A DNA stretch of 64,000 bases from Labilithrix luteola (GCF_001263205.1 NZ_CP012333.1:11121377-11185376); one strand, 5' to 3'; positions 45,983 through 58,672 are shown, numbered from the stretch's first letter. Made by a program: numbers and translations. The notes: a model not told the origin generated them from the letters alone.

Positions 45983-47740
45983 ATGCTTTTCAGTAGGTCC
46001 GGTCTGGTCGGCGTTGCTGTTACGAGTCTCCTTGGATCGTTCGTAGCGGTGGGATGTGGCGCGGACGGTGGCAGCGATCTGCCGTCGGAGACCCTGTCCG
46101 TGGACAGCAGCGCGCCGCAGCAGGAGGAGGACAACTCGACGCGGCTTCCCGGTCCGAGCGACGATCGCGACGCCTCCACAGGGAAGGACGCCGGAAAGGA
46201 CGCCGGAAAGGACGCCGGGAACGACGCCTCCACAGGGAAGGACGCCGGAAAGGACGCGGGACCTGCACCCGACCCGGGTGCTTCTTGCACCACCGTCGAT
46301 CAGATGACATCGCGCACGTGCGGAATGTGCGGCAAGCAGCAGGCCATTTGTCAGTCCGACGTCAACGGGACCCTCACGTGGAGCGATTACGGCCCGTGCC
46401 TCAACGAGGTTGGTGAGTGCATTCCCGGCGCGACGAAGGCGTGTGGGGACTGCGGTACCCAGACGTGCTCGAACACCTGCGGCTGGGGAACATGCGCGAG
46501 CCAACCCGCGAATCACTGCTCGCCCGGAACCGTCGACCGCACGGTGGCGGGTTGCCCTCAGGGTGGCTGGAAGAGTCGAACGTGCGATGGCACGTGCCAA
46601 TGGTCGGGCTATGCACTCACGTGCAGCCTTCCCACACCCGTTGATCTCTTCGCGGGCGGGTACAGCTACTCGACGTACATCCGCGGAAGCGACGGCGCGC
46701 TGTACGGTTGGGGGCGCAATACCGCCGGTCAGCTCGGTGGCCCCGACACCGACGACAAGCGCAAGATATCGCCGGGGTCGTTCGGTGACATCGTCTCGGT
46801 CCAGGCGGGTGGCGGTACTTCGTCGACGAACGGCTTCGCGTGCGCGGCCTTCGGGAACGGCAGCGCGAAGTGCTGGGGGAGCATCAGCAGCTCGTACACG
46901 TTCGGCGACGGCTCGACGACCACCTCGTCGACCGGCGTGACGCCCAACGGGTTCGAGGCAAACGTCAAGCAGATGGTCGTCGGCTACTCGAACGGCTGCG
47001 GCGTGTTCGCGGACGGCTCCGCGAAGTGCTGGGGCTACAACTACTACGGGCAGCTCGGCAACGGACTCACGACGGATTCGAAGACGCCCGTCGCCGTCAC
47101 CGGCCTCACGGACGCCAAACAGCTTGGCCTGGGCTACTACACCGTCTGCGCTCGCAAGGGCGACGGCTCGGCGTACTGCTGGGGCTACAACACCAACGGG
47201 ATGATCGGCGACGGAACGACCACCAACCGAAGCACGCCCACCCTCGCGATCGCCAGCGGAGTCGCGTCGGTCGCGCCTGGCTACTACCACACGTGCGCCG
47301 CCATGACGGACGGCACGGCCAAGTGCTGGGGCCAGAACACGAACGGCGAAATCGGAAACGGGGCGGGCGGAAGCAGCGCATCGAACGTCACGTCTCCAGC
47401 CACGGTCTCCGGCATCGACGGGGCCGGCCAGCTCTCGGGCGTCGCCGAGGTCTGCACCGGATATGGCATCAGCTGCGCGCGACTCTCGGACGGTCGCGTC
47501 GCGTGCTGGGGCCGCAACAATTACGGGCAGCTCGGCATCGGCAGCACGACCCCCTCGTCGGCGAACGTACCGAAGCTTGTCGGCGGCATCACGGCCGCGA
47601 CCAAGCTGGTGTGCGGCTACCAGCATGCTTGTGTCATCGACGTCGATAACCAGGTGAAGTGCTGGGGTGACGGCCAGTACGGGCAGATCGGTAACGGCGG
47701 AACCGCCGTTGCGACCACCGCCCAGCTCGCGACCTTCTAG
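45983..47740 (+). CDS. Lipoprotein: DAGKDAG repeats, Cys-rich module, then RCC1-like beta-propeller repeats
   Basis: Lipobox VAVGC. (DAGKDAG)n repeats. A 12-Cys module CTTVDQ...CGMCGKQ...CGDCGTQTCSNTCGWGTC. At least seven RCC1-type repeats (CWG.N.YGQLGNG). Confidence 0.85.
   Translation: MLFSRSGLVGVAVTSLLGSFVAVGCGADGGSDLPSETLSVDSSAPQQEEDNSTRLPGPSDDRDASTGKDAGKDAGKDAGNDASTGKDAGKDAGPAPDPGASCTTVDQMTSRTCGMCGKQQAICQSDVNGTLTWSDYGPCLNEVGECIPGATKACGDCGTQTCSNTCGWGTCASQPANHCSPGTVDRTVAGCPQGGWKSRTCDGTCQWSGYALTCSLPTPVDLFAGGYSYSTYIRGSDGALYGWGRNTAGQLGGPDTDDKRKISPGSFGDIVSVQAGGGTSSTNGFACAAFGNGSAKCWGSISSSYTFGDGSTTTSSTGVTPNGFEANVKQMVVGYSNGCGVFADGSAKCWGYNYYGQLGNGLTTDSKTPVAVTGLTDAKQLGLGYYTVCARKGDGSAYCWGYNTNGMIGDGTTTNRSTPTLAIASGVASVAPGYYHTCAAMTDGTAKCWGQNTNGEIGNGAGGSSASNVTSPATVSGIDGAGQLSGVAEVCTGYGISCARLSDGRVACWGRNNYGQLGIGSTTPSSANVPKLVGGITAATKLVCGYQHACVIDVDNQVKCWGDGQYGQIGNGGTAVATTAQLATF
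46286..46605 (+). repeat. Dispersed repeat copy 1, encoding the Cys-rich module (copy 2 at 50458-50775)
   Basis: About 80% nucleotide identity to 50458-50775, aligned by eye from ctgcaccac(c/g)gtcgatcagat... through ...cgaacgtgcg. Confidence 0.7.
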
Positions 47741-47810
47741 TCACGCGTGATGGCGACCGACGCGATATCTCCCCGTCGCGTCGGGTCCCCCATACCGTGT
47801 ACCGCGCCGT

Positions 47811-47886
47811 CCTGATTGGGAATCAGGCGGAGCCCCCCGGCGCTGCAAGACGCCGCTATCAAAACTGCCCCTGATTGACAATCAGG
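47811..47886. promoter_or_regulatory. Two copies of palindrome CCTGATTG-N-CAATCAGG spaced 59 bp apart, upstream of lipoprotein gene 47964
   Basis: cctgattgggaatcagg (47811-47827) and cctgattgacaatcagg (47870-47886). Both are followed by GCG. Confidence 0.45.
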
Positions 47887-47963
47887 CGTCCTGTCTCATC
47901 CCACTGCTCCGAAACCAATCGTCGAGCGGTATCCAACAAAACTGTAGTTAGGAGGATTTCCAT

Positions 47964-49349
47964 ATGCGCCACGCAACCGCGTTCGTCGCGCCTCTCGCGC
48001 TGATTGGTTTCTTCGTCGCCTGTAGCAGCAACTCGTCACGAGCGACGTTCCGCGGCGACGTCAATAGCAGCGACGCCCGGGCCCCGGAGGCTGGCACGGA
48101 CCCCAGCAGCGGGACCTTCGTGGAGGACGCCAACGCCCCCCTATGCGATCGGCTCGACTGCAAGGTGGCCGATTGCGGCGAAGGTCCCACCACCACGCTC
48201 GTGGGCAAGGTCTACGATCCGGCGGGAGCGAACCCGCTCTACAACGTGCAGGTCTACATCCCGAAGCTGGAGCCCGGAGAAGAGCTTCCGCCCCTGGCCG
48301 ACACCACCGTCGACGGGGTCGCGTGCGAGACCTGCGCCAGCGTCGTCGTGAACCCCCTGAGGAGCGCCATCACGAACGAGAAGGGGGAGTTTACCCTCGA
48401 GAACGTTCCGGTCGACAAGAACGTCCCCGTCGTCATCCAGGTCGGCAAGTGGCGCCGAAAGTTCGAGATCGAAGTCAAGAACGCGTGTGACGAAAACAAG
48501 GTCTCCGACCGCACACTCAAGCTCCCGAGGAACGGCTCCGAAGGCGATATGCCTCAAATCGCCGTCTCGACGGGTGGCTGCGACGCGCTCGAGTGCCTGC
48601 TCCGCGGGATCGGAGTCGACGACAACGAGTTCGTCCAAGGCCACGGCGGATCAGGCCACGTGCACGTGTTCAAGGGTGAGTTGGGCGAGATGGGCGCACC
48701 GGCTCAGTCCTTCTGGAACGACGCCGAGCAGCTCAAGAAATACGACATGGTGCTCCTCTCCTGCGAATGCGGCGAGAACCTGCCGAACAAGGGCGGCAGC
48801 GCGCAGGGAGCGCGCGGGTCGATGTACGATTATCTGAATGCGGGCGGCCGCGTGTTCGCGACGCACTTTCATTACAGCTGGTTCAGGTATTCACCCTCGT
48901 ACGACTTCCGCCAAATCGCGAGTTGGGGAAGCAGCGATTCGAGCTCCGGTGACTACAACGTCAACATGGACTTCCCCAATGGTGACATGCTCGCCCGCTG
49001 GCTCGTCGAGACAGGCGGCTCGTCCACCCTCGGCAAGGTCCCGCTGACCGACGCGACGGGATCGATAACGCGCGTGAACAGTCCCGCGACCACATGGATC
49101 TCGAGGCCGTCTGCCCCGAAGTTCTTGAGCTTCAATACGCCCGTCGACGTCCCCGAGGACGAGCAGTGCGGGCGCGCGGTCTTCAGCGATGTCCACGTCA
49201 CGGGCAATGGAGGCCCGTCGAGCATCTCGGGTTGCTCGATCAGCGCGGGCGGGCTGAGCGGCCAGCAGAAGGCGCTCGAGTTCCTCTTCTTCGACCTGTC
49301 GTCGTGCGTGCAGAAGATCGAAGATCCGCCGACGCCCCCGACGAAATAA
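47964..49349 (+). CDS. Hypothetical Cys-rich lipoprotein with carboxypeptidase-regulatory-like N-terminal fold
   Basis: RBS TAGGAGGA. Lipobox FFVAC. N-terminal segment KVYDPAGANPLYNVQVYI. Many Cys residues. Confidence 0.75.
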   Translation: MRHATAFVAPLALIGFFVACSSNSSRATFRGDVNSSDARAPEAGTDPSSGTFVEDANAPLCDRLDCKVADCGEGPTTTLVGKVYDPAGANPLYNVQVYIPKLEPGEELPPLADTTVDGVACETCASVVVNPLRSAITNEKGEFTLENVPVDKNVPVVIQVGKWRRKFEIEVKNACDENKVSDRTLKLPRNGSEGDMPQIAVSTGGCDALECLLRGIGVDDNEFVQGHGGSGHVHVFKGELGEMGAPAQSFWNDAEQLKKYDMVLLSCECGENLPNKGGSAQGARGSMYDYLNAGGRVFATHFHYSWFRYSPSYDFRQIASWGSSDSSSGDYNVNMDFPNGDMLARWLVETGGSSTLGKVPLTDATGSITRVNSPATTWISRPSAPKFLSFNTPVDVPEDEQCGRAVFSDVHVTGNGGPSSISGCSISAGGLSGQQKALEFLFFDLSSCVQKIEDPPTPPTK

Positions 49350-49361
49350 CAAGACTCGCAA

Positions 49362-50000
49362 GTGATTCGCAGTCCCCATTTCACATTGGCACTCGCACTT
49401 TCGGCGGTCGTCGCTGCCTGCACGACGACCGCCGCGCCCTCGCCCTCCCCCTCGCCTGACGGGGATGCGGTTGTCGTCCAGCGGACGGCGCAGCCCTGCG
49501 TGCCGGGCGAGGTCACGCTTCCCATTGGCGCGTTCGACATGACATCGAGCGAAGGCGGAGGCAGGGCGTGCGCGGTCGGCAACGTCCTCGACGAGGACGG
49601 CAAGTTCGCCGCGATCGCGAGCGCCGGTTCCGCGACGCACGAGCTCGCAGGGCGTGCCGTGAACGGCTGCATCGGTGTCGAGTTCGGCGACGACATCCTG
49701 CTTTCGTCGTTCATCATGAAGATGCGGCCGACGCATGGCGCGTGCGGGCACTCGTGCACGCCGGGCGTCGAGACCGGCTGCGGCACGGGCTGGAAGGTGG
49801 CCATCTTCGTCGGGCCGACGCTCGAGGAGCTCGAGTTCCTCCAGCAGCTTTCGCTCACGACAGAGGACGTCTTCGAGTATCGCGTCGCTGTCTTCAAATC
49901 CAATCGTGCGCGCTACGCGGTCATCTGTCGGGAGCCGACGCCGGAGACGGGCGACGATGTCGAAATCGACGCTCTCGCCGGCTTCTGCCAAGTCCAATGA
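49362..50000 (+). CDS. Hypothetical Cys-containing lipoprotein
   Basis: GTG start. Lipobox AVVAAC. 212 aa. No clear RBS. Confidence 0.5.
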   Translation: MIRSPHFTLALALSAVVAACTTTAAPSPSPSPDGDAVVVQRTAQPCVPGEVTLPIGAFDMTSSEGGGRACAVGNVLDEDGKFAAIASAGSATHELAGRAVNGCIGVEFGDDILLSSFIMKMRPTHGACGHSCTPGVETGCGTGWKVAIFVGPTLEELEFLQQLSLTTEDVFEYRVAVFKSNRARYAVICREPTPETGDDVEIDALAGFCQVQ

Positions 50001-50136
50001 GTCCGAACGATTGACAGTTTGCGGCGGGATAGAGGCGCGCACCCCGTCCCTTCGCCTCGCCGATCGACCAGCCGTCACATTGCTGCAGGCCCTCCGCTGC
50101 AGTGGGAATCCGTAGTGGGTAGTAAGGAGCGAGATT

Positions 50137-51297
50137 ATGCGTTCGAGAAGGTCTGGTCTGGTTGGATTCGCCATTGCTGGTCTCGTCGGCGCGTACGCGG
50201 TGATCGGGTGCAGCGCTGACGGCGGCGGCGTCGAGCCCGACGGTCTCGAGCTCGATCTCGCGGACAGTGGGGAGGACGCGACCGAGCCTGAGTCGTCCAC
50301 CGTCCTTCCGCCAAGCACGGACGCATCCGCCCAGGACTCAGGCCCCAAAGATGCGGGCAAAGACGCTGCCAAAGACGCCGGCAATGATGCGGGCAAAGAC
50401 GCGGGCGGTACCGTAGCCAAGGATGCCGGCGCTCCCCCGCCCACCCCGTGGACCCCCTGCACCACGGTCGATCAGATCGCCGCGCGGAGCTGCGGAATGT
50501 GCGGCAAGCAGACGGCCATCTGTCAGGAAGTCTACGGGGAGCTCGTTTGGACCGATTACGGCCCATGCCAGAACGAAGCAGGAGAGTGTCTGCCTGGCGC
50601 GACACAGGCGTGCGGAAACTGCGGGACCCAGACGTGCTCGAACACGTGCGGATGGGGATCGTGCACCGGGCAGCCCCCCTCGAGCTGCACGCCGGGAACC
50701 GTCGAGTACACGCAGGCGGGGTGTCCGACCGGCGGATACAAGAACCGAGCGTGCGGGACGGCGTGCTCGTGGGACCCCTATACCGTCGCCTGCGCTGTCC
50801 CCACGGCTCCGAACAAGATGACGATCTCCGCCACGGTCGGCACCATCGTGAAACAGCAGTACAGGTTCCCGGACGACACGGCCCCGAAGCCAAACACCTC
50901 GTGCAACGGCCTAACGACCACCAACGTCCGTTCGTTCCCCGTCGAGGTGGCGAACCCGACGTCGCAGACGGCGACGCTCACCGTGTTCAACTCGAAGTCG
51001 CCGACGACGGGCGCCGATGTCGATACGGTCATTTGGTACTACAAGGGTGAGGCGCTGCCGATGTCCGACGCCGAACGCGGCCAGTGCACCGGTACGGTGA
51101 CCGACTCTTGCAGCGGGACGACTCCCATCAACCTCTGCGGGAATGCGAGCGACACGAGCTCCCTGCTCGCTGGCGTCCCGAACGTCACGATCCCGCCGAA
51201 CGGCAAGATCGTCGTATTCACCGCGCTCTGGGGCTCCAGCACCAGCGCCGGAGACGGCACGATCATGCTGAACCTCAAGACGGACAAGCTTCAGTGA
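50137..51297 (+). CDS. Lipoprotein sharing the DAGKDA-repeat plus Cys-rich N-terminal module with gene 45983, but with a different C-terminal domain
   Basis: RBS AAGGAG. Lipobox VIGC. Identical-pattern Cys module CTTVDQIAARSCGMCGKQTAICQ...CGNCGTQTCSNTCGWGSC. The C-terminal 200 aa are unrelated to RCC1. Confidence 0.8.
   Translation: MRSRRSGLVGFAIAGLVGAYAVIGCSADGGGVEPDGLELDLADSGEDATEPESSTVLPPSTDASAQDSGPKDAGKDAAKDAGNDAGKDAGGTVAKDAGAPPPTPWTPCTTVDQIAARSCGMCGKQTAICQEVYGELVWTDYGPCQNEAGECLPGATQACGNCGTQTCSNTCGWGSCTGQPPSSCTPGTVEYTQAGCPTGGYKNRACGTACSWDPYTVACAVPTAPNKMTISATVGTIVKQQYRFPDDTAPKPNTSCNGLTTTNVRSFPVEVANPTSQTATLTVFNSKSPTTGADVDTVIWYYKGEALPMSDAERGQCTGTVTDSCSGTTPINLCGNASDTSSLLAGVPNVTIPPNGKIVVFTALWGSSTSAGDGTIMLNLKTDKLQ
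50458..50775 (+). repeat. Dispersed repeat copy 2 (Cys-rich module)
   Basis: See copy 1 at 46286-46605. Confidence 0.7.
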
Positions 51298-51427
51298 GCT
51301 GACCCACGTTCCGGCGACGCACGGAGCGGCGGGCTTGGCGAACCTCAGGGTGCCGCTCGCCGGACGTGCTCAGCCAATCTTCGTCGATCGCTCACGCTCG
51401 AGAGTCTGACGGCATAAGTTTCAACAA

Positions 51428-54028
51428 ATGGATTCGTCGACATTCGACGAAGGCAGAATTCAAAACATGGCTATAACGATGACTCGGCATCGCGTGGTTC
51501 TCGCGGCTTGCGCGCTTGTCGCCGCGGTTATCGCGTGGGGATGTAGTGGCAGTGACGGGCCTTCGAATATTCCCGATTGCCAAGTTGGACAGGAGCTCTG
51601 TTCGGGGGTTTGCGTCGACGTCGGTGCCAACCGCGCCAACTGCGGAGCGTGTGGCAAGTCGTGCTCCAGCGGCGAAGCATGCAACGACGGCAAGTGCGTC
51701 CTCTCGTGCACCGGAAGTACGACGAACTGCGAAGGGGCGTGCGTTGACACGCGAGTCGACAGCGCCAACTGCGGAGCGTGTGGAACCGCGTGCACCGGGG
51801 GCGAGGTGTGCAGTGCTGGCAAGTGCGCACCGTCGTGCAGCGGTGGCACCACGCAATGCGGGTCGAAGTGCATCGATACGAAGCTCGATAACGCCAACTG
51901 CGGAGCATGCGGCAAGGCGTGTGGCAAGGGCGAGCTCTGCTCGAACGGTGCATGTGCTCCGAGCTGTGGCGCCGGCACCGCCGAGTGCGGAGGCAAGTGC
52001 GTAGAGACGGAGAACGACCCGGCCAACTGCGGTGCGTGCGGGAATGCATGTCCCGAAGGCAAGGTCTGCTCGCACGGAACCTGCTCGGTGACATGCCTTG
52101 GCGGCAGCACCAAGTGCGGTGGCAAGTGCGCGGACACGGCAGTCGACCCGGCCAACTGCGGAGGGTGCTTGCTCGAATGTGCGAGCGGTCAAGTCTGCTC
52201 GAACGGAGCGTGCTCGCTCTCGTGCGTCGGCGGGACGAAGAAGTGCGGGAACAGGTGCGTCGACACGGCCGCCGATCCGGCAAACTGCGGCGCCTGCGGA
52301 AATTCATGCACGAACGGCCAGGCATGTTCGAACGGCACGTGCTCGTTGAAGTGCGCGGGCGGAACCACGAAGTGCGGAAGCAAGTGCGCGGATACGGTCA
52401 CCGACCCGGCCAACTGCGGCACATGCGGGAACGCGTGTCCGAGTGGTCAGGTCTGCTCGAACGGCGCGTGCACCCTGTCGTGTGCCGGCGGCACGACCAA
52501 GTGCGGGTCCAAGTGTGCCAACACGACGAACGATCCTTCCAACTGTGGCGCCTGCGGGACCGCGTGCACCGGCGGCACCGTGTGTTCGAACGGCACGTGC
52601 TCGCTGACGTGTGTTGGCGGCACCACCAAGTGCGATTCGAAGTGTGTCGACACGAAGAGCGATTCGTTCAACTGCGGAAGCTGCGGAACCGCGTGCGATT
52701 CCGGTGAGCGATGCTCGAACGGCGTCTGCGCGAGCGCGGGGACCGGCACGGGCGAGGTATGCGGCGTCGGCACGACCGGTTGCAGCGGTGTCTGCGTCGA
52801 CACGTCGAGCAACGCGAGCCACTGCGGTGCGTGTGGCAATGCCTGCACGTCGGGCAGAACGTGCAAAAACAGCGTGTGCGTTTGCAACCCGGGCGAGTCC
52901 GCGTGCGGTACGGGCTGCGCGAACTTGTCGACGAACAGCTTGAACTGCGGTGCGTGCGGCAACGCATGTGGCGCGAACCAGGTCTGCGCCGGCGGCACGT
53001 GTATGGGGATCACGCAAGGCACGGGCGGTGCGGGCGGTAGCCTGACGGGCTCGGCCCTGCCGAAGGTCGCCGTCATGGCGGCTGCTTCGACGCAGGGGCC
53101 GGATCTTCAGGCAAAGCTCGTCGCGACCAAGCTGTTCTCTGCAGTCGATTTCGTCAGCGTCAGCAGCACCTCCACGCCCACTCTCGCGACGATGAAGACG
53201 TACGACGCGATCGTGGCCTGGACCTATTCGTCGGTGGCCTCGGCGTTCGGCGACAACCTCGCGCAGTACCTCGAGGCAGGCGGCGGCGTGGTCCTCGCCG
53301 ACTACGAGTCGCAGGAGACGGGGACGTATGCACTCACCGGCCGTTACCAGACGGACTACACACTCTCGACGCCGGTCCCCTCGAGCAACTGGGTGAAGAC
53401 TCCCGTGACGCTCGGCACGATCAACGAGCCCGCGAGCCCGCTCATGGCTGGCGTAACCTCCTTCGGTTACCCCTCCACCTCGTCGGCGTATCACCTGCCA
53501 GCGTCGAGCTTCAACAAGAACAACCCGGTCATCGTGGCGTCGTACTCCGACGGCATTCCCGCGGTCGTGCGAGGCGTGATCAACGGGCACACCGTGGTCG
53601 AAATCAATGGCTCGGGCGCTTCGACGACATCGTACTCGTCCGGATGGGACCCGGCGAGCAGCGGAGCCAGGCTGTTCGCGAACGCGCTGATCTTCACGAT
53701 TCCGTCGCCGACGATCACGACGTCAAAGCAGCTCGATTTCGGCAACCAGCAAGTCTTCACCTCGTCCTCGCCTCAGCTGGTGACGTACACGAACGCGAGC
53801 AACGTGCCCCAGACGATCACGGCGCTCGGCCTCAGCGGCAGCCACATCGGCGACTTCGCGATGGCGCCGTCGTCCGGGCTGCCGGTCACGCTCCAGCCGG
53901 GAGATACGTTCGTCGTGAACGTGGGCTTCTCGCCTGCTGGAACGGGCCTCCGCGCAGCGATGCTCTCCGCGACCATCGCGAGCACGAACGCGCAGGCGAC
54001 GACGTTGCTCACCGGCACCGGCAACTGA
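51428..54028 (+). CDS. Lipoprotein with 13 tandem myxobacterial cysteine-rich repeats (CxxCGxC type) and a C-terminal Ser/Thr-rich domain
   Basis: Lipobox AWGC. About 13 repeats of ~28 aa with pattern C.DT..D..NCGACG..C..G..CS.G.C...C.GGTTKCG.KC, encoded by ~84-bp tandem nucleotide repeats between 51600 and 52990. Alternative start at 51467. Confidence 0.85.
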   Translation: MDSSTFDEGRIQNMAITMTRHRVVLAACALVAAVIAWGCSGSDGPSNIPDCQVGQELCSGVCVDVGANRANCGACGKSCSSGEACNDGKCVLSCTGSTTNCEGACVDTRVDSANCGACGTACTGGEVCSAGKCAPSCSGGTTQCGSKCIDTKLDNANCGACGKACGKGELCSNGACAPSCGAGTAECGGKCVETENDPANCGACGNACPEGKVCSHGTCSVTCLGGSTKCGGKCADTAVDPANCGGCLLECASGQVCSNGACSLSCVGGTKKCGNRCVDTAADPANCGACGNSCTNGQACSNGTCSLKCAGGTTKCGSKCADTVTDPANCGTCGNACPSGQVCSNGACTLSCAGGTTKCGSKCANTTNDPSNCGACGTACTGGTVCSNGTCSLTCVGGTTKCDSKCVDTKSDSFNCGSCGTACDSGERCSNGVCASAGTGTGEVCGVGTTGCSGVCVDTSSNASHCGACGNACTSGRTCKNSVCVCNPGESACGTGCANLSTNSLNCGACGNACGANQVCAGGTCMGITQGTGGAGGSLTGSALPKVAVMAAASTQGPDLQAKLVATKLFSAVDFVSVSSTSTPTLATMKTYDAIVAWTYSSVASAFGDNLAQYLEAGGGVVLADYESQETGTYALTGRYQTDYTLSTPVPSSNWVKTPVTLGTINEPASPLMAGVTSFGYPSTSSAYHLPASSFNKNNPVIVASYSDGIPAVVRGVINGHTVVEINGSGASTTSYSSGWDPASSGARLFANALIFTIPSPTITTSKQLDFGNQQVFTSSSPQLVTYTNASNVPQTITALGLSGSHIGDFAMAPSSGLPVTLQPGDTFVVNVGFSPAGTGLRAAMLSATIASTNAQATTLLTGTGN

Positions 54029-54179: not shown

Positions 54180-55295
54180 TCAGCGCCCGGGCATCGGATG
54201 CCCCGCCTTCGCGCGGGCCTCGATCATGTTCTTCAACTCTTCGACTTCGATCGACTGATTGAGCGCCTGCTCGAGCGTGATGAAGCGGCGCATGTAGAGG
54301 TTCAGGAGCGACTGGTTCAGCGTGAGCATGCCGAACTTGTCCTGGCCGACCTGCATCTGACCGTAGATCTGATGGACCTTGTTCTCGCGAATCAGGTTCC
54401 GGATGGCGGGGTTCGGCACCAGGATCTCCATGGCGAGGCAGCGGCCCGGCGCACCGGCGCGCGGCAAGAGCTGCTGGGTGATGACGCCCTGGAGAACGAA
54501 CGACAGCTTGTTGCGGATCTGGTCCTGCTGGTGGGGCGGGAAGACGTCGATGATACGGTTGATCGTCGACACCGCGCTGTTCGTGTGGAGCGTGGCGAAG
54601 ACCAAGTGACCGGTTTCGGCGATGGTCAGCGCGGCCTCGATGGTGTCGAGGTCGCGCATTTCGCCGACGAGCACGACGTCGGGGTCCTGGCGAAGAACGT
54701 AACGGAGCGCGCCCTTGAACGACGCGGTGTCCGAGCCGACTTCGCGCTGATTCACGACGCACATCTTGTGCGGGTGCAAGTACTCGATCGGGTCTTCGAT
54801 CGTAAGGATGTGCATCCGCTGCTCGCTGTTGATCTTGTCGATGATCGACGCGAGCGTGGTGCTCTTGCCCGAACCGGTGGGTCCGGTGACGAGGACGAGG
54901 CCGTTCGGCTTGTTCGCGATGTCCGAGATGACGGTCGGCAGACCGAGCTCGTCGAACGAGAGGATCTTGAAGGGAATCGTTCGAATCGCGCCGGCGATCG
55001 TGGTGCGCTGCAGGTAGATGTTGGCGCGGAAACGCGAGAGGTTCTTCACGCCGAACGAGAGGTCGAGCTCGCTGTCCTTTTCGAACGAGATCTTCTGCTC
55101 CTCGGTCATGATCGAGTAGCAGAGCTGCTTCGTGTCGACCGGGGTGAGCGGCGGCAGCTTGAGCGGAATGACCTCGCCGTCGATGCGCAGGAGCGGCGGC
55201 GCGCCTGCCGTGATGTGCATGTCGCTCGCGCCCTTCTCGACCATCGCCTTGAGGAGCTGGTGGAGATTGACCTTGAGTTCGCCAGCCTGGGTCAT
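54180..55295 (-). CDS. pilT: Type IV pilus retraction ATPase PilT
   Basis: Walker A GPTGSGKST. Motifs ILTIEDPIE and LRQDPDV. C-terminal AIRNLIRE. RBS AAGGA. Confidence 0.9.
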   Translation of the reverse strand: MTQAGELKVNLHQLLKAMVEKGASDMHITAGAPPLLRIDGEVIPLKLPPLTPVDTKQLCYSIMTEEQKISFEKDSELDLSFGVKNLSRFRANIYLQRTTIAGAIRTIPFKILSFDELGLPTVISDIANKPNGLVLVTGPTGSGKSTTLASIIDKINSEQRMHILTIEDPIEYLHPHKMCVVNQREVGSDTASFKGALRYVLRQDPDVVLVGEMRDLDTIEAALTIAETGHLVFATLHTNSAVSTINRIIDVFPPHQQDQIRNKLSFVLQGVITQQLLPRAGAPGRCLAMEILVPNPAIRNLIRENKVHQIYGQMQVGQDKFGMLTLNQSLLNLYMRRFITLEQALNQSIEVEELKNMIEARAKAGHPMPGR

Positions 55296-55596: not shown

Positions 55597-57303
55597 TCAG
55601 TCTGCCATCGTGACGCGGAGGATTTCCTCCGTCGTCGTGACTCCGTCGAGCACCTTGCCGATGCCCGACATTCGGAGAGTCATCATGCCTTGCTTGATCG
55701 CGGCGGCCTTGAGCTCCGCAGTCGACGAGCCCTGGAGAACGAGCTCCTTGAGCGTGTCGTTGAAGCGCATGACTTCGTAGAGAGCCACGCGGCCTTTGTA
55801 GCCCGTGCCGTTGCACGTGCGGCAGCCGAAGCCTTTCACGAGACGACCCGGCGCGGCTTGGATCTGCGCCGGCGTGAAGCCGACCTCCTGCAGCGCCGCG
55901 GGGTCGATCTGGATCTGCTGCCGGCAGTCGCCACACACCTTACGCGCGAGACGCTGGGCGAGAACGAGGTTGACCGACGCCGTGATGAGGAACGGCTCGA
56001 CACCCATGTTGAGGAGACGCGAGATCGTTGCCGGAGCGTCGTTCGTGTGGAGCGTCGAGAGAACCATGTGGCCGGTGAGCGCGGCCTTGACCGCGATTTC
56101 CGCGGTCTCGAAGTCACGGATCTCGCCGACCATGATGATGTCGGGGTCCTGACGGAGGAACGAGCGGAGCGCCGCGGCGAAGTTCAGGCCGATCGAGTCC
56201 TGCATCTGCACCTGGTTGATGCCGTGCAGGTTGTATTCGACCGGGTCTTCGGCGGTGCTGATGTTCGTGTCGGGCTGATTGAGCTCGCTGAGCGCCGAGT
56301 AGAGCGTCGTCGTCTTTCCCGAACCCGTGGGCCCCGTGACGAGCACCATGCCCCAGGGCTGGTTGATGGCCCACTTGAAGTCCTCGAGGGGCTTCACGTC
56401 GAAGCCGAGCTTCGTCATGTCGAGCTGGAGGTTGCCCTTGTCGAGGAGGCGCATGACGATCTTCTCGCCCCACAGGGTCGGAAGAATGCTCACGCGGAAG
56501 TCCATCTCGCGGCCCTTGCCGAGCTTCAGCTTGATACGACCGTCTTGCGGGAGCCGGCGCTCGGCGATGTCGAGCGAGCTCATGATCTTCAGACGGCTGA
56601 CGATCGCGTTCTTCAACTTGAGGGGCGGCGTCATCTCTTCGACGAGCACGCCGTCGACGCGGTAACGCACGCGGAGCCGCTTTTCGTAGGGCTCGATGTG
56701 AATGTCGCTCGCGCCCTTCTTGATGGCGTTGAGCAGGATCATGTTCACGAGACGAACGACGGGAGCGTCTTCGCTGGCGCGCTCGAGCTCGAGGGCGTTG
56801 AGATCTTCTTCGTCGCCGGTGAACTCGATCTCCGACTCGTCGAAGCCGGCCATGACCTCCTCGTACGAGGGGCCGACCGAGTAATAACGCTCGACGGCGG
56901 CGAGGATGGCCGCCTCGCTCGCGATGACCGGCTCGATGTTGTAGCCGGTGAGGAACTTCAGGTCGTCGATGGCGTGGAGGTTCGTCGGGTCGGCCATCGC
57001 CACGATGAGCGAGCTACCCGCGCGCGAGACCGGGATGACCCGGTGCTTCTCGCACTGGTCCTTCGACACCAGCTTCAGGATCTCGGCGTCGATCTCGTAC
57101 TCTTCGAGATTGATCGTCGGGACGCGGTACTGCTGAGACAGGAAGTTGGTGATTTCCTGGTCACTGATGAAGCCGAGCTTCGCCAGCGTGTAACCCAGGT
57201 TCTGCCCGGAGCGATTCTGCTCGTCCTGCGCCTGCCGCAGCTGCGTGAGCGAGATCAGCTTCTCTCGAACGAGCAGCTCACCGAGCCTGTTCTGGTTCGC
57301 CAT
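55597..57303 (-). CDS. pilB: Type IV pilus assembly ATPase PilB
   Basis: N-terminal GSPII domain, Walker A GPTGSGKTTT, C-terminal Cys4 zinc motif. ATG 57303 preferred over the upstream TTG at 57315. Confidence 0.9.
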   Translation of the reverse strand: MANQNRLGELLVREKLISLTQLRQAQDEQNRSGQNLGYTLAKLGFISDQEITNFLSQQYRVPTINLEEYEIDAEILKLVSKDQCEKHRVIPVSRAGSSLIVAMADPTNLHAIDDLKFLTGYNIEPVIASEAAILAAVERYYSVGPSYEEVMAGFDESEIEFTGDEEDLNALELERASEDAPVVRLVNMILLNAIKKGASDIHIEPYEKRLRVRYRVDGVLVEEMTPPLKLKNAIVSRLKIMSSLDIAERRLPQDGRIKLKLGKGREMDFRVSILPTLWGEKIVMRLLDKGNLQLDMTKLGFDVKPLEDFKWAINQPWGMVLVTGPTGSGKTTTLYSALSELNQPDTNISTAEDPVEYNLHGINQVQMQDSIGLNFAAALRSFLRQDPDIIMVGEIRDFETAEIAVKAALTGHMVLSTLHTNDAPATISRLLNMGVEPFLITASVNLVLAQRLARKVCGDCRQQIQIDPAALQEVGFTPAQIQAAPGRLVKGFGCRTCNGTGYKGRVALYEVMRFNDTLKELVLQGSSTAELKAAAIKQGMMTLRMSGIGKVLDGVTTTEEILRVTMAD

Positions 57304-57466
57304 GTTTGGGGACAAAGCGTCGATGATGCGACGGGATACGTCAATGGGCTCGCAGCACCGACGTGCGTGGTGACGTTCACGCCGGCCTTTCGAGAGGGTG
57401 ACGCCGTCCGTCCGATCGCAGGGGCACCAGGAGTTGCAGCGTTGTGGCAGACTGTGGGTCCGCCGA

Positions 57467-58672
57467 ATGCCGACCTTCTTCGACCGCTTCTTCGGAAAAG
57501 GACGCGCCGCGACGGCCGCTCAGGCCGCCGAGCTGCGAGGGGACCTCGCCAAGGCAGCTGAGCTCTACGGCGAGGCCGACCTGCCGGAGGAAGCCGCGCG
57601 GGTCATCCTCCTCCGCGGCGACAGCGAGACCGATCCGCGGGCGCGCCTCCAGTTCTTCGCCCAAGCCCGCCAGTTCGCACCGGCCGACTCGGACATCCAC
57701 AACGAAGCCCGAAGAAAGCGGGCAGAGCTCCTGCTCGCGCTTGCCGGCGACGCGACCGTGAGCGCTGTGGCTCGCCACGACGTGCTCGAGGCCGCGAAGG
57801 ACCTCGAAGCGGTCGGCGAGCCGCTCAGGGCCGCCGAAGCCTATGCGCGCGCCGGCGACAAGGAGGGCGAAGCGCGGGCGCTCCAGGCGGCGGGCGACGT
57901 CGAGCGCCTCGAGTTCCTCTTGTCGACCGAGCAGCACAAGGAGCGCATCTCCCGCGCACGTGACGACCGCACGAAAGACGTCGACCTGCTCATCGCGTGC
58001 GGCCGACGGCGCGAAGCGCTCGGTGCGCTCGACGAGCTCCTGCGCGAGATCCACAAGACGTCGAACGGAGACTTCGGCGTGCGTGTCGACGAGACGTCGC
58101 TCCGAGAGCGCGCCAACGGACTGCGCGCCCGCAAGATCGAGGCGCCCATCGTGGAGGTCGAGATCGGCGAGAGCCACGTCCGGCTCGTGCTCGGACGCGA
58201 GATCGTGATCGGCCGGAGCGAGGGCACCATCCGCGTCAGCTCCAACGCCATCAGCCGCCAGCACCTCCGGATCTTCCGCGAGGGCGACGCCGTCGTGGTA
58301 CGCGATCTCGAGAGCCGGAACGGCACGCAGCTCCGGGGCGTGAACCTCGCGGGCACCTTTCCCATCCACGAGGGCCTCGAGTTGAAGCTCGGACGCGAAG
58401 TCCCTCTACGAATCACGCCGAGCGAGGCGCTGCCGGGTGCCATCGAGATCGAGGTCGCCGGTCAGCGGTATCTCGCCACGCTCGGCCCGACGAACCTGCC
58501 CGCCTTCGGATTCGAGCTGGTTGCCGGTCCTGACGGTTGGGTGGAGCTGCTCGCGCGGCACCCGGCGTTCCAGGGCGACGTCGAACTCGTGGGACAGACG
58601 ACACTTCTCGCGGGTGACGCCATCGCCACGACGCGGGGTGGTGCACCGGCGATCCGGTTCGTGAGCACCTGA
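57467..58672 (+). CDS. TPR-like N-terminal / C-terminal FHA domain protein, divergent from pilB
   Basis: ATG 57467. Ala/Glu-rich helical N-terminus. FHA segment VIGRSEGTIRVSSNAISRQHLRI...SRNGTQLRG. Confidence 0.7.
   Translation: MPTFFDRFFGKGRAATAAQAAELRGDLAKAAELYGEADLPEEAARVILLRGDSETDPRARLQFFAQARQFAPADSDIHNEARRKRAELLLALAGDATVSAVARHDVLEAAKDLEAVGEPLRAAEAYARAGDKEGEARALQAAGDVERLEFLLSTEQHKERISRARDDRTKDVDLLIACGRRREALGALDELLREIHKTSNGDFGVRVDETSLRERANGLRARKIEAPIVEVEIGESHVRLVLGREIVIGRSEGTIRVSSNAISRQHLRIFREGDAVVVRDLESRNGTQLRGVNLAGTFPIHEGLELKLGREVPLRITPSEALPGAIEIEVAGQRYLATLGPTNLPAFGFELVAGPDGWVELLARHPAFQGDVELVGQTTLLAGDAIATTRGGAPAIRFVST

Follow-up and report, generated by a model that had tools for sequence, protein, structure and literature searches.

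Within the window, as we call the whole 64,000-nucleotide stretch of DNA analyzed here, which comes from the soil myxobacterium Labilithrix luteola, two plus-strand genes designated A and D encode lipoproteins that begin alike and end in unrelated domains (Table 1). The product of gene D is a 100% match to a hypothetical protein of this organism (P0151, AKJ09_10562). By sequence, A and D are paralogs, two lipoproteins that use one and the same scaffold: they can be aligned from residue 1, and their shared N-terminal part is 53% identical over 243 amino acids (aa; BLASTP, E=1e-70). Gene A opens with the ATG at 45983 (MLFSRSGLVG...VAVGC) and gene D with the ATG at 50137 (MRSRRSGLVG...VIGC), the same starts that were proposed in an initial annotation of this DNA, which also correctly recognized in both genes a lipobox, KDAG repeats and a Cys-rich module with identical Cys spacing. 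That annotation described the two scaffolds as near-identical, with about 80% nucleotide identity over some 320 bp. The common scaffold and the unrelated C-termini are confirmed, but the modules are less close than this: they are 65% identical as protein and 71% identical as DNA over 351 nucleotides (nt), with 73% over the best 320 nt and 79–81% only over the best 100–200 nt. On formal alignment these values nevertheless lie above the level of roughly 50% below which the likeness was to be discounted. The similarity is real and far beyond chance, yet it had been overstated. No third copy of the module was matched in the window; a weak tblastn match at 55947-55804 lies inside pilB and was set aside as chance.

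Table 1. Genes A and D with their parts, and the neighboring lipoprotein genes, in window coordinates (ORF, open reading frame; pLDDT, predicted local distance difference test).
Feature	Position	Strand	Basis or content
Gene A, lipoprotein, 585 aa	45983..47740	+	ORF/translation; signal peptide/lipobox, KDAG linker, 16-Cys module, RCC1-like beta-propeller
Gene A signal peptide and lipobox (…FVAVGC, Cys25)	45983..46057	+	sequence reading; start fits family consensus MRSLKSGL…VVGCSADG
Gene A low-complexity tether, D/A/G/K/P-rich, with KDAG-encoding 12-nt tandem repeats at 46184-46261	46058..46282	+	Tandem Repeats Finder
Gene A Cys-rich module with three degenerate sub-repeats and 16 Cys, aa 101-217	46283..46633	+	
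Gene A RCC1-like beta-propeller head, aa ~226-585	46658..47737	+	PF25390, PF13540, PF00415
Gene D, lipoprotein, 386 aa, AKJ09_10562	50137..51297	+	signal peptide/lipobox, KDAG linker, 16-Cys module, predicted beta-sandwich head
Gene D signal peptide and lipobox (…AVIGC, Cys25)	50137..50211	+	sequence reading
Gene D tether, predicted to be disordered, with a 12-nt tandem array at 50346-50406	50212..50454	+	pLDDT, Tandem Repeats Finder
Gene D Cys-rich module, aa 107-222, 16 Cys	50455..50802	+	
Gene D C-terminal head, predicted beta-sandwich, aa 223-386, ~165 aa	50803..51294	+	
Gene B, lipoprotein, 461 aa, adjoins gene A	47964..49349	+	lipobox FFVAC
Gene C, lipoprotein, 212 aa	49362-50000	+	lipobox VVAAC
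Gene E, lipoprotein, 866 aa, begins 130 nt downstream of D	51428-54028	+	lipobox AWGC

The scaffold begins with a signal peptide. In lipoprotein biogenesis, cleavage occurs before the lipobox Cys, here Cys25, which is then lipidated. Both A and D contain the lipobox pattern [LVI][ASTVI][GAS]C ending at this residue, and G24 and C25 are invariant in all 62 of the family members aligned. In Myxococcus xanthus, Lys at the +2 position after the lipobox Cys is reported to be the signal for retention in the inner membrane. At +2, A has Gly and D, like most relatives, has Ser. As neither residue is Lys, sorting of these proteins to the outer membrane is suggested by analogy. A tether of about 65–80 residues follows, within a low-complexity stretch of 75–80 aa in A and D; its length ranges from 52 to 81 aa across the family, where Pro, Gly, Asp and Ala make up 58% of its residues. 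In the AlphaFold model of D, residues 1–99 have a pLDDT of 39–48 and are predicted to be disordered.

In the Cys-rich module, the initial annotation counted 12 cysteines; both modules in fact contain 16, every one of which is invariant across the 62 aligned homologs. Profile–profile comparison with hhalign resolves the module into three degenerate copies of a 30–40 aa unit, the match between the second and third sub-repeats being the stronger (probability 94%, E=2e-7) and that between the first and second the weaker (E=6e-5); this three-copy structure agrees with the long tandem arrays found in other proteins, described below. When the module of D is modeled alone, AlphaFold predicts an all-beta arrangement of hairpins with a pLDDT of 92.7, and in the model of the whole protein residues 100–386 exceed 90. 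The 16 cysteines presumably form eight disulfides, which would lock the module as a compact rod. Each module also contains two CxxC motifs of the form CGxCG.

The initial annotation called this module undescribed, and database searches agree. Neither Pfam nor NCBIfam contains a match to the A and D modules, to the repeat arrays of the long proteins or, even at E≤10, to 36 isolated modules. Sequence searches of the PDB with the module and with profiles of the full family gave nothing below E=0.1, and a fold search of the PDB with the module model found no relative. The best fold analogue, a weak one (TM-score ~0.33), is a tandem of fibronectin type I modules; these, like other eukaryotic disulfide-rich matrix repeats, have another Cys pattern and share no sequence similarity with the module, which leaves an analogy of construction. 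A literature search on the CGNCG motif found nothing relevant. Pfam, NCBIfam and the PDB thus have no entry for the repeat, for the D-type family or for its tandem arrays, and our literature search yielded no paper that describes them.

Beyond the rod, the two proteins have nothing in common. The assignment of an RCC1 propeller to gene A is borne out by three Pfam models, all above their cut-offs (PF25390, 163 bits against 150; PF13540, 147 against 22; PF00415, 131 against 21.7), and our literature search on myxobacterial RCC1 lipoproteins found nothing relevant. The C-terminal region of D comprises about 165 aa rather than the 200 or so first estimated, and it has no Pfam match at E≤0.1, PF04151 included, and no NCBIfam match. 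Its model resembles a jelly-roll beta-sandwich of the collagen-binding/PPC kind, and its fold matches include botulinum HA70, the receptor-binding C-terminal domain of Clostridium perfringens enterotoxin and calpain C2-like domains, at about 8% identity. These matches are all binding modules, and the likeness is one of fold only; the comparison with the collagen-binding domain of the clostridial collagenase ColG and with PPC domains likewise stands at 8% identity with no PF04151 match. Scans of A and D against Pfam and NCBIfam revealed no toxin family.

The scaffold belongs to a sizeable family. A word-indexed search with the two-sequence module alignment returned zero homologs, and an exhaustive HMMER search against 1.84 billion cluster representatives was used instead; it gave 387 matches at E≤1e-3, of which 139 reach E≤1e-10. 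Relatives of D fall into at least 159 clusters (clustered at 90% identity), and most of the 120 that were listed span its full length at 36–54% identity. All are unnamed or "hypothetical" and without a Pfam domain, and their named sources are Labilithrix or metagenome-assembled genomes (MAGs) of Myxococcales. RCC1-type relatives of A are P0003, P0197, P0230, P0247, P0251, P0252 and P0256. Architectures and C-terminal regions were counted in the 150 best cluster representatives of the module search: 79 have the D architecture, one is of the RCC1 type and 70 are other proteins, many with 5–20 matched repeat stretches in tandem (for example P0001, P0002 and P0005). The long multi-repeat proteins measure 1100–1550 aa. 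Known domains among the other repeat proteins are Laminin_G_3, FGE-sulfatase, Lcl_C, NIDO, NBR1-Ig, CHAP and the Cu-binding MopE motif (PF11617), and a lipobox-like motif is present in 105 of the 138 repeat proteins with an intact start. One long protein, P0009 (1554 aa, with NBR1-Ig and MopE motifs besides the Cys-rich repeat), is deposited under the MAG of a "Nanoarchaeota archaeon", a label that may reflect a binning error or a repeat that reaches well beyond Myxococcota.

The shuffling of modules on a common scaffold, as first suggested for A and D, is upheld by this survey, in which at least 29 BLAST-distinct C-terminal regions come after the repeat, the D-type, RCC1 and Laminin_G_3 regions among them. 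Recent shuffling is not upheld. Orthologs of both the D type and the RCC1 type are present in other Labilithrix-like genomes at 55–65% identity, and in a neighbor-joining tree of modules the RCC1-type modules lie inside one D-type subclade, the one that holds D of the window. In this comparison the module of A shares 64% identity with that of D and 56–63% with the modules of the A orthologs, and with D-type modules of other genomes it reaches as much as 66%. Judged from these sequences, the head replacement is ancient and inherited, not a recent cassette exchange, because both architectures have such orthologs and the A module is no closer to that of D than to those of other genomes. The RCC1 version would thus be an old derivative of the D-type family in which the head was replaced.

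The codons of the two modules were also compared. At identical module residues, 50 of 71 codons are identical, where 37.4 would be expected from codon usage; the signal peptide (6 against 6.0 expected) and the linker (13 against 19.5 expected) show no excess. A recent gene conversion between A and D was considered and rejected, as the excess is confined to the module and the A module, at 64% to D, reaches up to 66% elsewhere. To judge from the codons, a conversion that was old or partial is possible, with local codon constraint as the alternative.

The surroundings of these genes differ among genomes. A scan of genome contigs gave two Labilithrix MAG loci; the L. luteola genome was not among the contigs so found. 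D-type genes lie upstream of recD2, as singletons in L001, L002 and L004-L006 and as three tandem paralogs in L007 and L008; other housekeeping neighbors are groEL and feoB. Triple arrays of D-type genes occur in L007 (3047-6831), L008 (980-4908) and L011 (7962-13242), with 35–56% identity to D of the window, and those of L007 and L008 stand directly upstream of a recD2-like helicase gene, whereas the L011 array has a different context. Orthologs or paralogs of gene A were found in L003, L009 and L010 (59–64% identity across the alignment, which in two of the L009 copies spans the whole protein). The three RCC1-type genes of L009 share one locus, two of them directly adjacent; the first is separated from the second by a gene-B homolog (66% identity), and a gene-B homolog also lies between the paralogs in L010. 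On the related metagenomic contig L009 (5296-13538), a gene for an extracytoplasmic function (ECF) sigma factor and a 276-aa ORF directly precede the first RCC1-type gene, with a 4-nt overlap, which hints at ECF-controlled expression of the RCC1-type genes there.

A functional partnership between gene B and A was also considered. Their pairing recurs in one related metagenome assembly. Gene B adjoins A homologs in L009 and L010 but not in L003, where the A ortholog has different neighbors, a VWA protein among them, and no adjacent B homolog; B also belongs to a family of thousands, and it was treated as a neighbor only. Gene B probably does not belong functionally to the scaffold. Genes C and E were never found beside A or D homologs in the loci examined, and among these loci there is no conserved partner gene for A or for D. 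A small cognate gene of the immunity kind, which the initial annotation had led us to look for, is likewise missing from them: no small downstream gene is conserved, and the neighbors vary from genome to genome.

In the window itself, A and D are part of a run of five successive plus-strand genes, A to E (45983-54028), every one of which begins with a lipobox, forming a lipoprotein gene cluster of mostly unassigned function. Genes B and C are separated by a gap of only 12 nt. Gene B contains a weak CarboxypepD_reg-like segment and has several paralogs in L. luteola and a family of at least 3499 clusters; its deposited name, "Tryptophan synthase alpha chain", seems to be a misannotation, and the deposited protein is 67 aa shorter at its N-terminus than the ORF. 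Gene C has no Pfam or NCBIfam match. Gene E, immediately 3′ of D, encodes a second Cys-rich "stalk" protein, unrelated to that of D: 11 repeats of the STIG1-like/MXAN_6577-like kind (NF041328, E=4e-156) are followed by a choice-of-anchor D domain. It resembles A and D in being a lipoprotein in which a long Cys-rich repeat region precedes globular domains, but its repeats are of a different family, since A and D match neither NF041328 nor PF04885 and gene E matches strongly. Another protein, P0010, carries both repeat types in separate regions. Just past the cluster, on the minus strand, are pilT (54180-55295) and pilB (55597-57315), which encode type IV pilus ATPases; a gene for an FHA-domain protein (57398-58672) comes after pilB. 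With thiolase, OsmC and TPR protein genes also present, the surroundings are those of ordinary chromosome. A scan for promoters and terminators gave nothing above background.

From the sequences and models, we propose that A and D are lipid-anchored, disulfide-stiffened stalk proteins that present ligand-binding heads, a reading that we consider somewhat probable. The signal peptide would be cleaved at the lipobox, and the mature protein would start with the lipid-modified Cys. The disordered, acidic, Pro/Gly-rich tether would then give reach and flexibility, and the rod of about 117 residues, presumably locked by eight disulfides that form in the periplasm, would serve as a stiff spacer. Together, tether and rod would hold the predicted ligand-binding head off the membrane, as in an adhesin or receptor, with different heads serving different ligands. 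The distribution of conservation along the protein supports this reading: mean pairwise identity within the family falls from 60% in the signal peptide to 52% in the rod, 44% in the linker and 38% in the head, where single pairs go down to 17%; no other part varies as much as the head, and the rod is better conserved.

Several points weigh against this proposal. The likeness of the modeled D head to collagen-binding and PPC domains is at fold level only, at 8% identity and with no Pfam match. The +2 sorting rule is borrowed from M. xanthus, not Labilithrix, and applies here by analogy. The CGxCG motifs could in principle bind metal. The design of tether plus rod would suit the spanning of the periplasm equally well, and surface exposure is not something that can be deduced from sequence.

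This last point leads to the alternative that survives best, which we regard as possible though rather unlikely: that A and D are outer-membrane lipoproteins facing the periplasm, whose heads reach peptidoglycan or an inner-membrane partner in some task of envelope housekeeping, with long linkers like those of LpoA and LpoB. The linker that follows the lipid anchor, conserved, disordered and about 70 aa long, would fit such a role, as would the unusually conserved signal peptide (60% mean pairwise identity), the housekeeping neighborhoods of D-type genes (recD2, groEL, feoB) and a disulfide-rich fold, which is compatible with the periplasm. The presence of three tandem paralogs per locus, with heads that diverge to 17% identity, looks instead like the diversification of an outward binding surface, and the same repeat is found in proteins of 1100–1550 aa together with Laminin_G, NIDO or Lcl_C domains, which are typically extracellular.

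Envelope proteins of modular build, in which a Cys-rich stalk carries exchangeable heads, are already known as a kind of system. In TraA of M. xanthus, Cys-rich repeats have been proposed to form a rigid stalk that presents a PA14 head (PMC3325183). Like TraA, A and D are myxobacterial envelope proteins in which Cys-rich tandem repeats are the proposed stalk and the candidate binding head varies. The polarity, however, is reversed, with an N-terminal lipid anchor and a C-terminal head in A and D; the proteins end in …LNLKTDKLQ and …TTAQLATF before their stop codons, with no hydrophobic helix and no basic tail, and hence no MYXO-CTERM. The heads differ as well, being an RCC1 propeller and a predicted PPC-like sandwich rather than PA14, and A and D have no NCBIfam match at E≤0.1 to the TraA repeat, TIGR04201, assuming that this model is contained in NCBIfam release 20. 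A bolder extension of our proposal is that the repeat of about 35 residues (C-x-PG-x(4-6)-CGxCGT-x(2-4)-C-x3-C-xW-x(1-3)-C) defines a new bacterial "matrix-like" disulfide fold family, and that the tandem D-type and RCC1-type lipoproteins of Labilithrix are diversifying receptors that recognize kin, prey or substrate at the cell surface in a TraA-like role; taken as a whole, this extension is doubtful.

It is quite improbable that the module is a metal-binding or redox domain, with CGxCG as CxxC sites, rather than a structural rod. Two such motifs per module, the Cu-binding MopE motif in some of the repeat proteins and the zinc-ribbon or Fe-S matches of single module sequences, very weak at E above 2, would speak for it. 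The Cys count, however, is even (16) and invariant, and the proteins are exported; the fold and the beads-on-a-string arrays are typical of disulfide-knotted extracellular repeats, the best fold analogue, weak as it is, is a tandem of fibronectin type I modules, and no metal-binding family is matched significantly.

The initial annotation likened A and D to polymorphic or toxin-delivery proteins, of which SitA is the myxobacterial example: a lipobox and disordered region, an escort domain some 375 aa in length, nucleases at the C-terminus, an immunity gene that is always in the same operon and often a setting of mobile elements (PMC8546572). With the shared N-terminal part as escort, the C-termini as toxins and a small neighbor as immunity gene, A and D would show such a layout, for their lipobox is followed by a disordered region, their N-terminal part is conserved and their C-termini vary, and the genes are multi-copy. 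The C-termini, however, are an RCC1 propeller and a predicted PPC-like sandwich of the binding type, with no nuclease and no known toxin fold. The gene 3′ of D is gene E, recD2 or a paralog and that 3′ of A is gene B, the VWA protein or a paralog, depending on the genome, with no sitI-like partner; B, C and E carry lipoboxes and are exported, unlike the cytoplasmic immunity proteins expected against nuclease toxins. The surroundings are of the housekeeping and not the mobile-element kind, and the structured part shared by A and D is Cys-rich and 117 aa long, as compared with the escort domain of SitA as described. Of the SitA features, only the lipobox plus disordered region is found in A and D, there is no evidence for a toxin system, and we consider a SitA-like function highly improbable.

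Adhesion, gliding, predation and kin recognition in myxobacteria depend on envelope proteins, only a few of which are, to our knowledge, understood (TraA, CglB, SitA). The present analysis defines a sizeable unannotated family, with at least 159 D-type clusters and 387 repeat-bearing clusters, whose construction is clear and confidently modeled: a lipid anchor, a flexible tether, a 16-Cys rod and an exchangeable head. Should the heads turn out to work in the periplasm, this would be just one more unannotated envelope family. Either way, the rod merits a domain model of its own, and the deposited annotation can be improved. If the heads are surface receptors, the arrays of tandem paralogs would be well suited to following how recognition modules diversify on a constant stalk.

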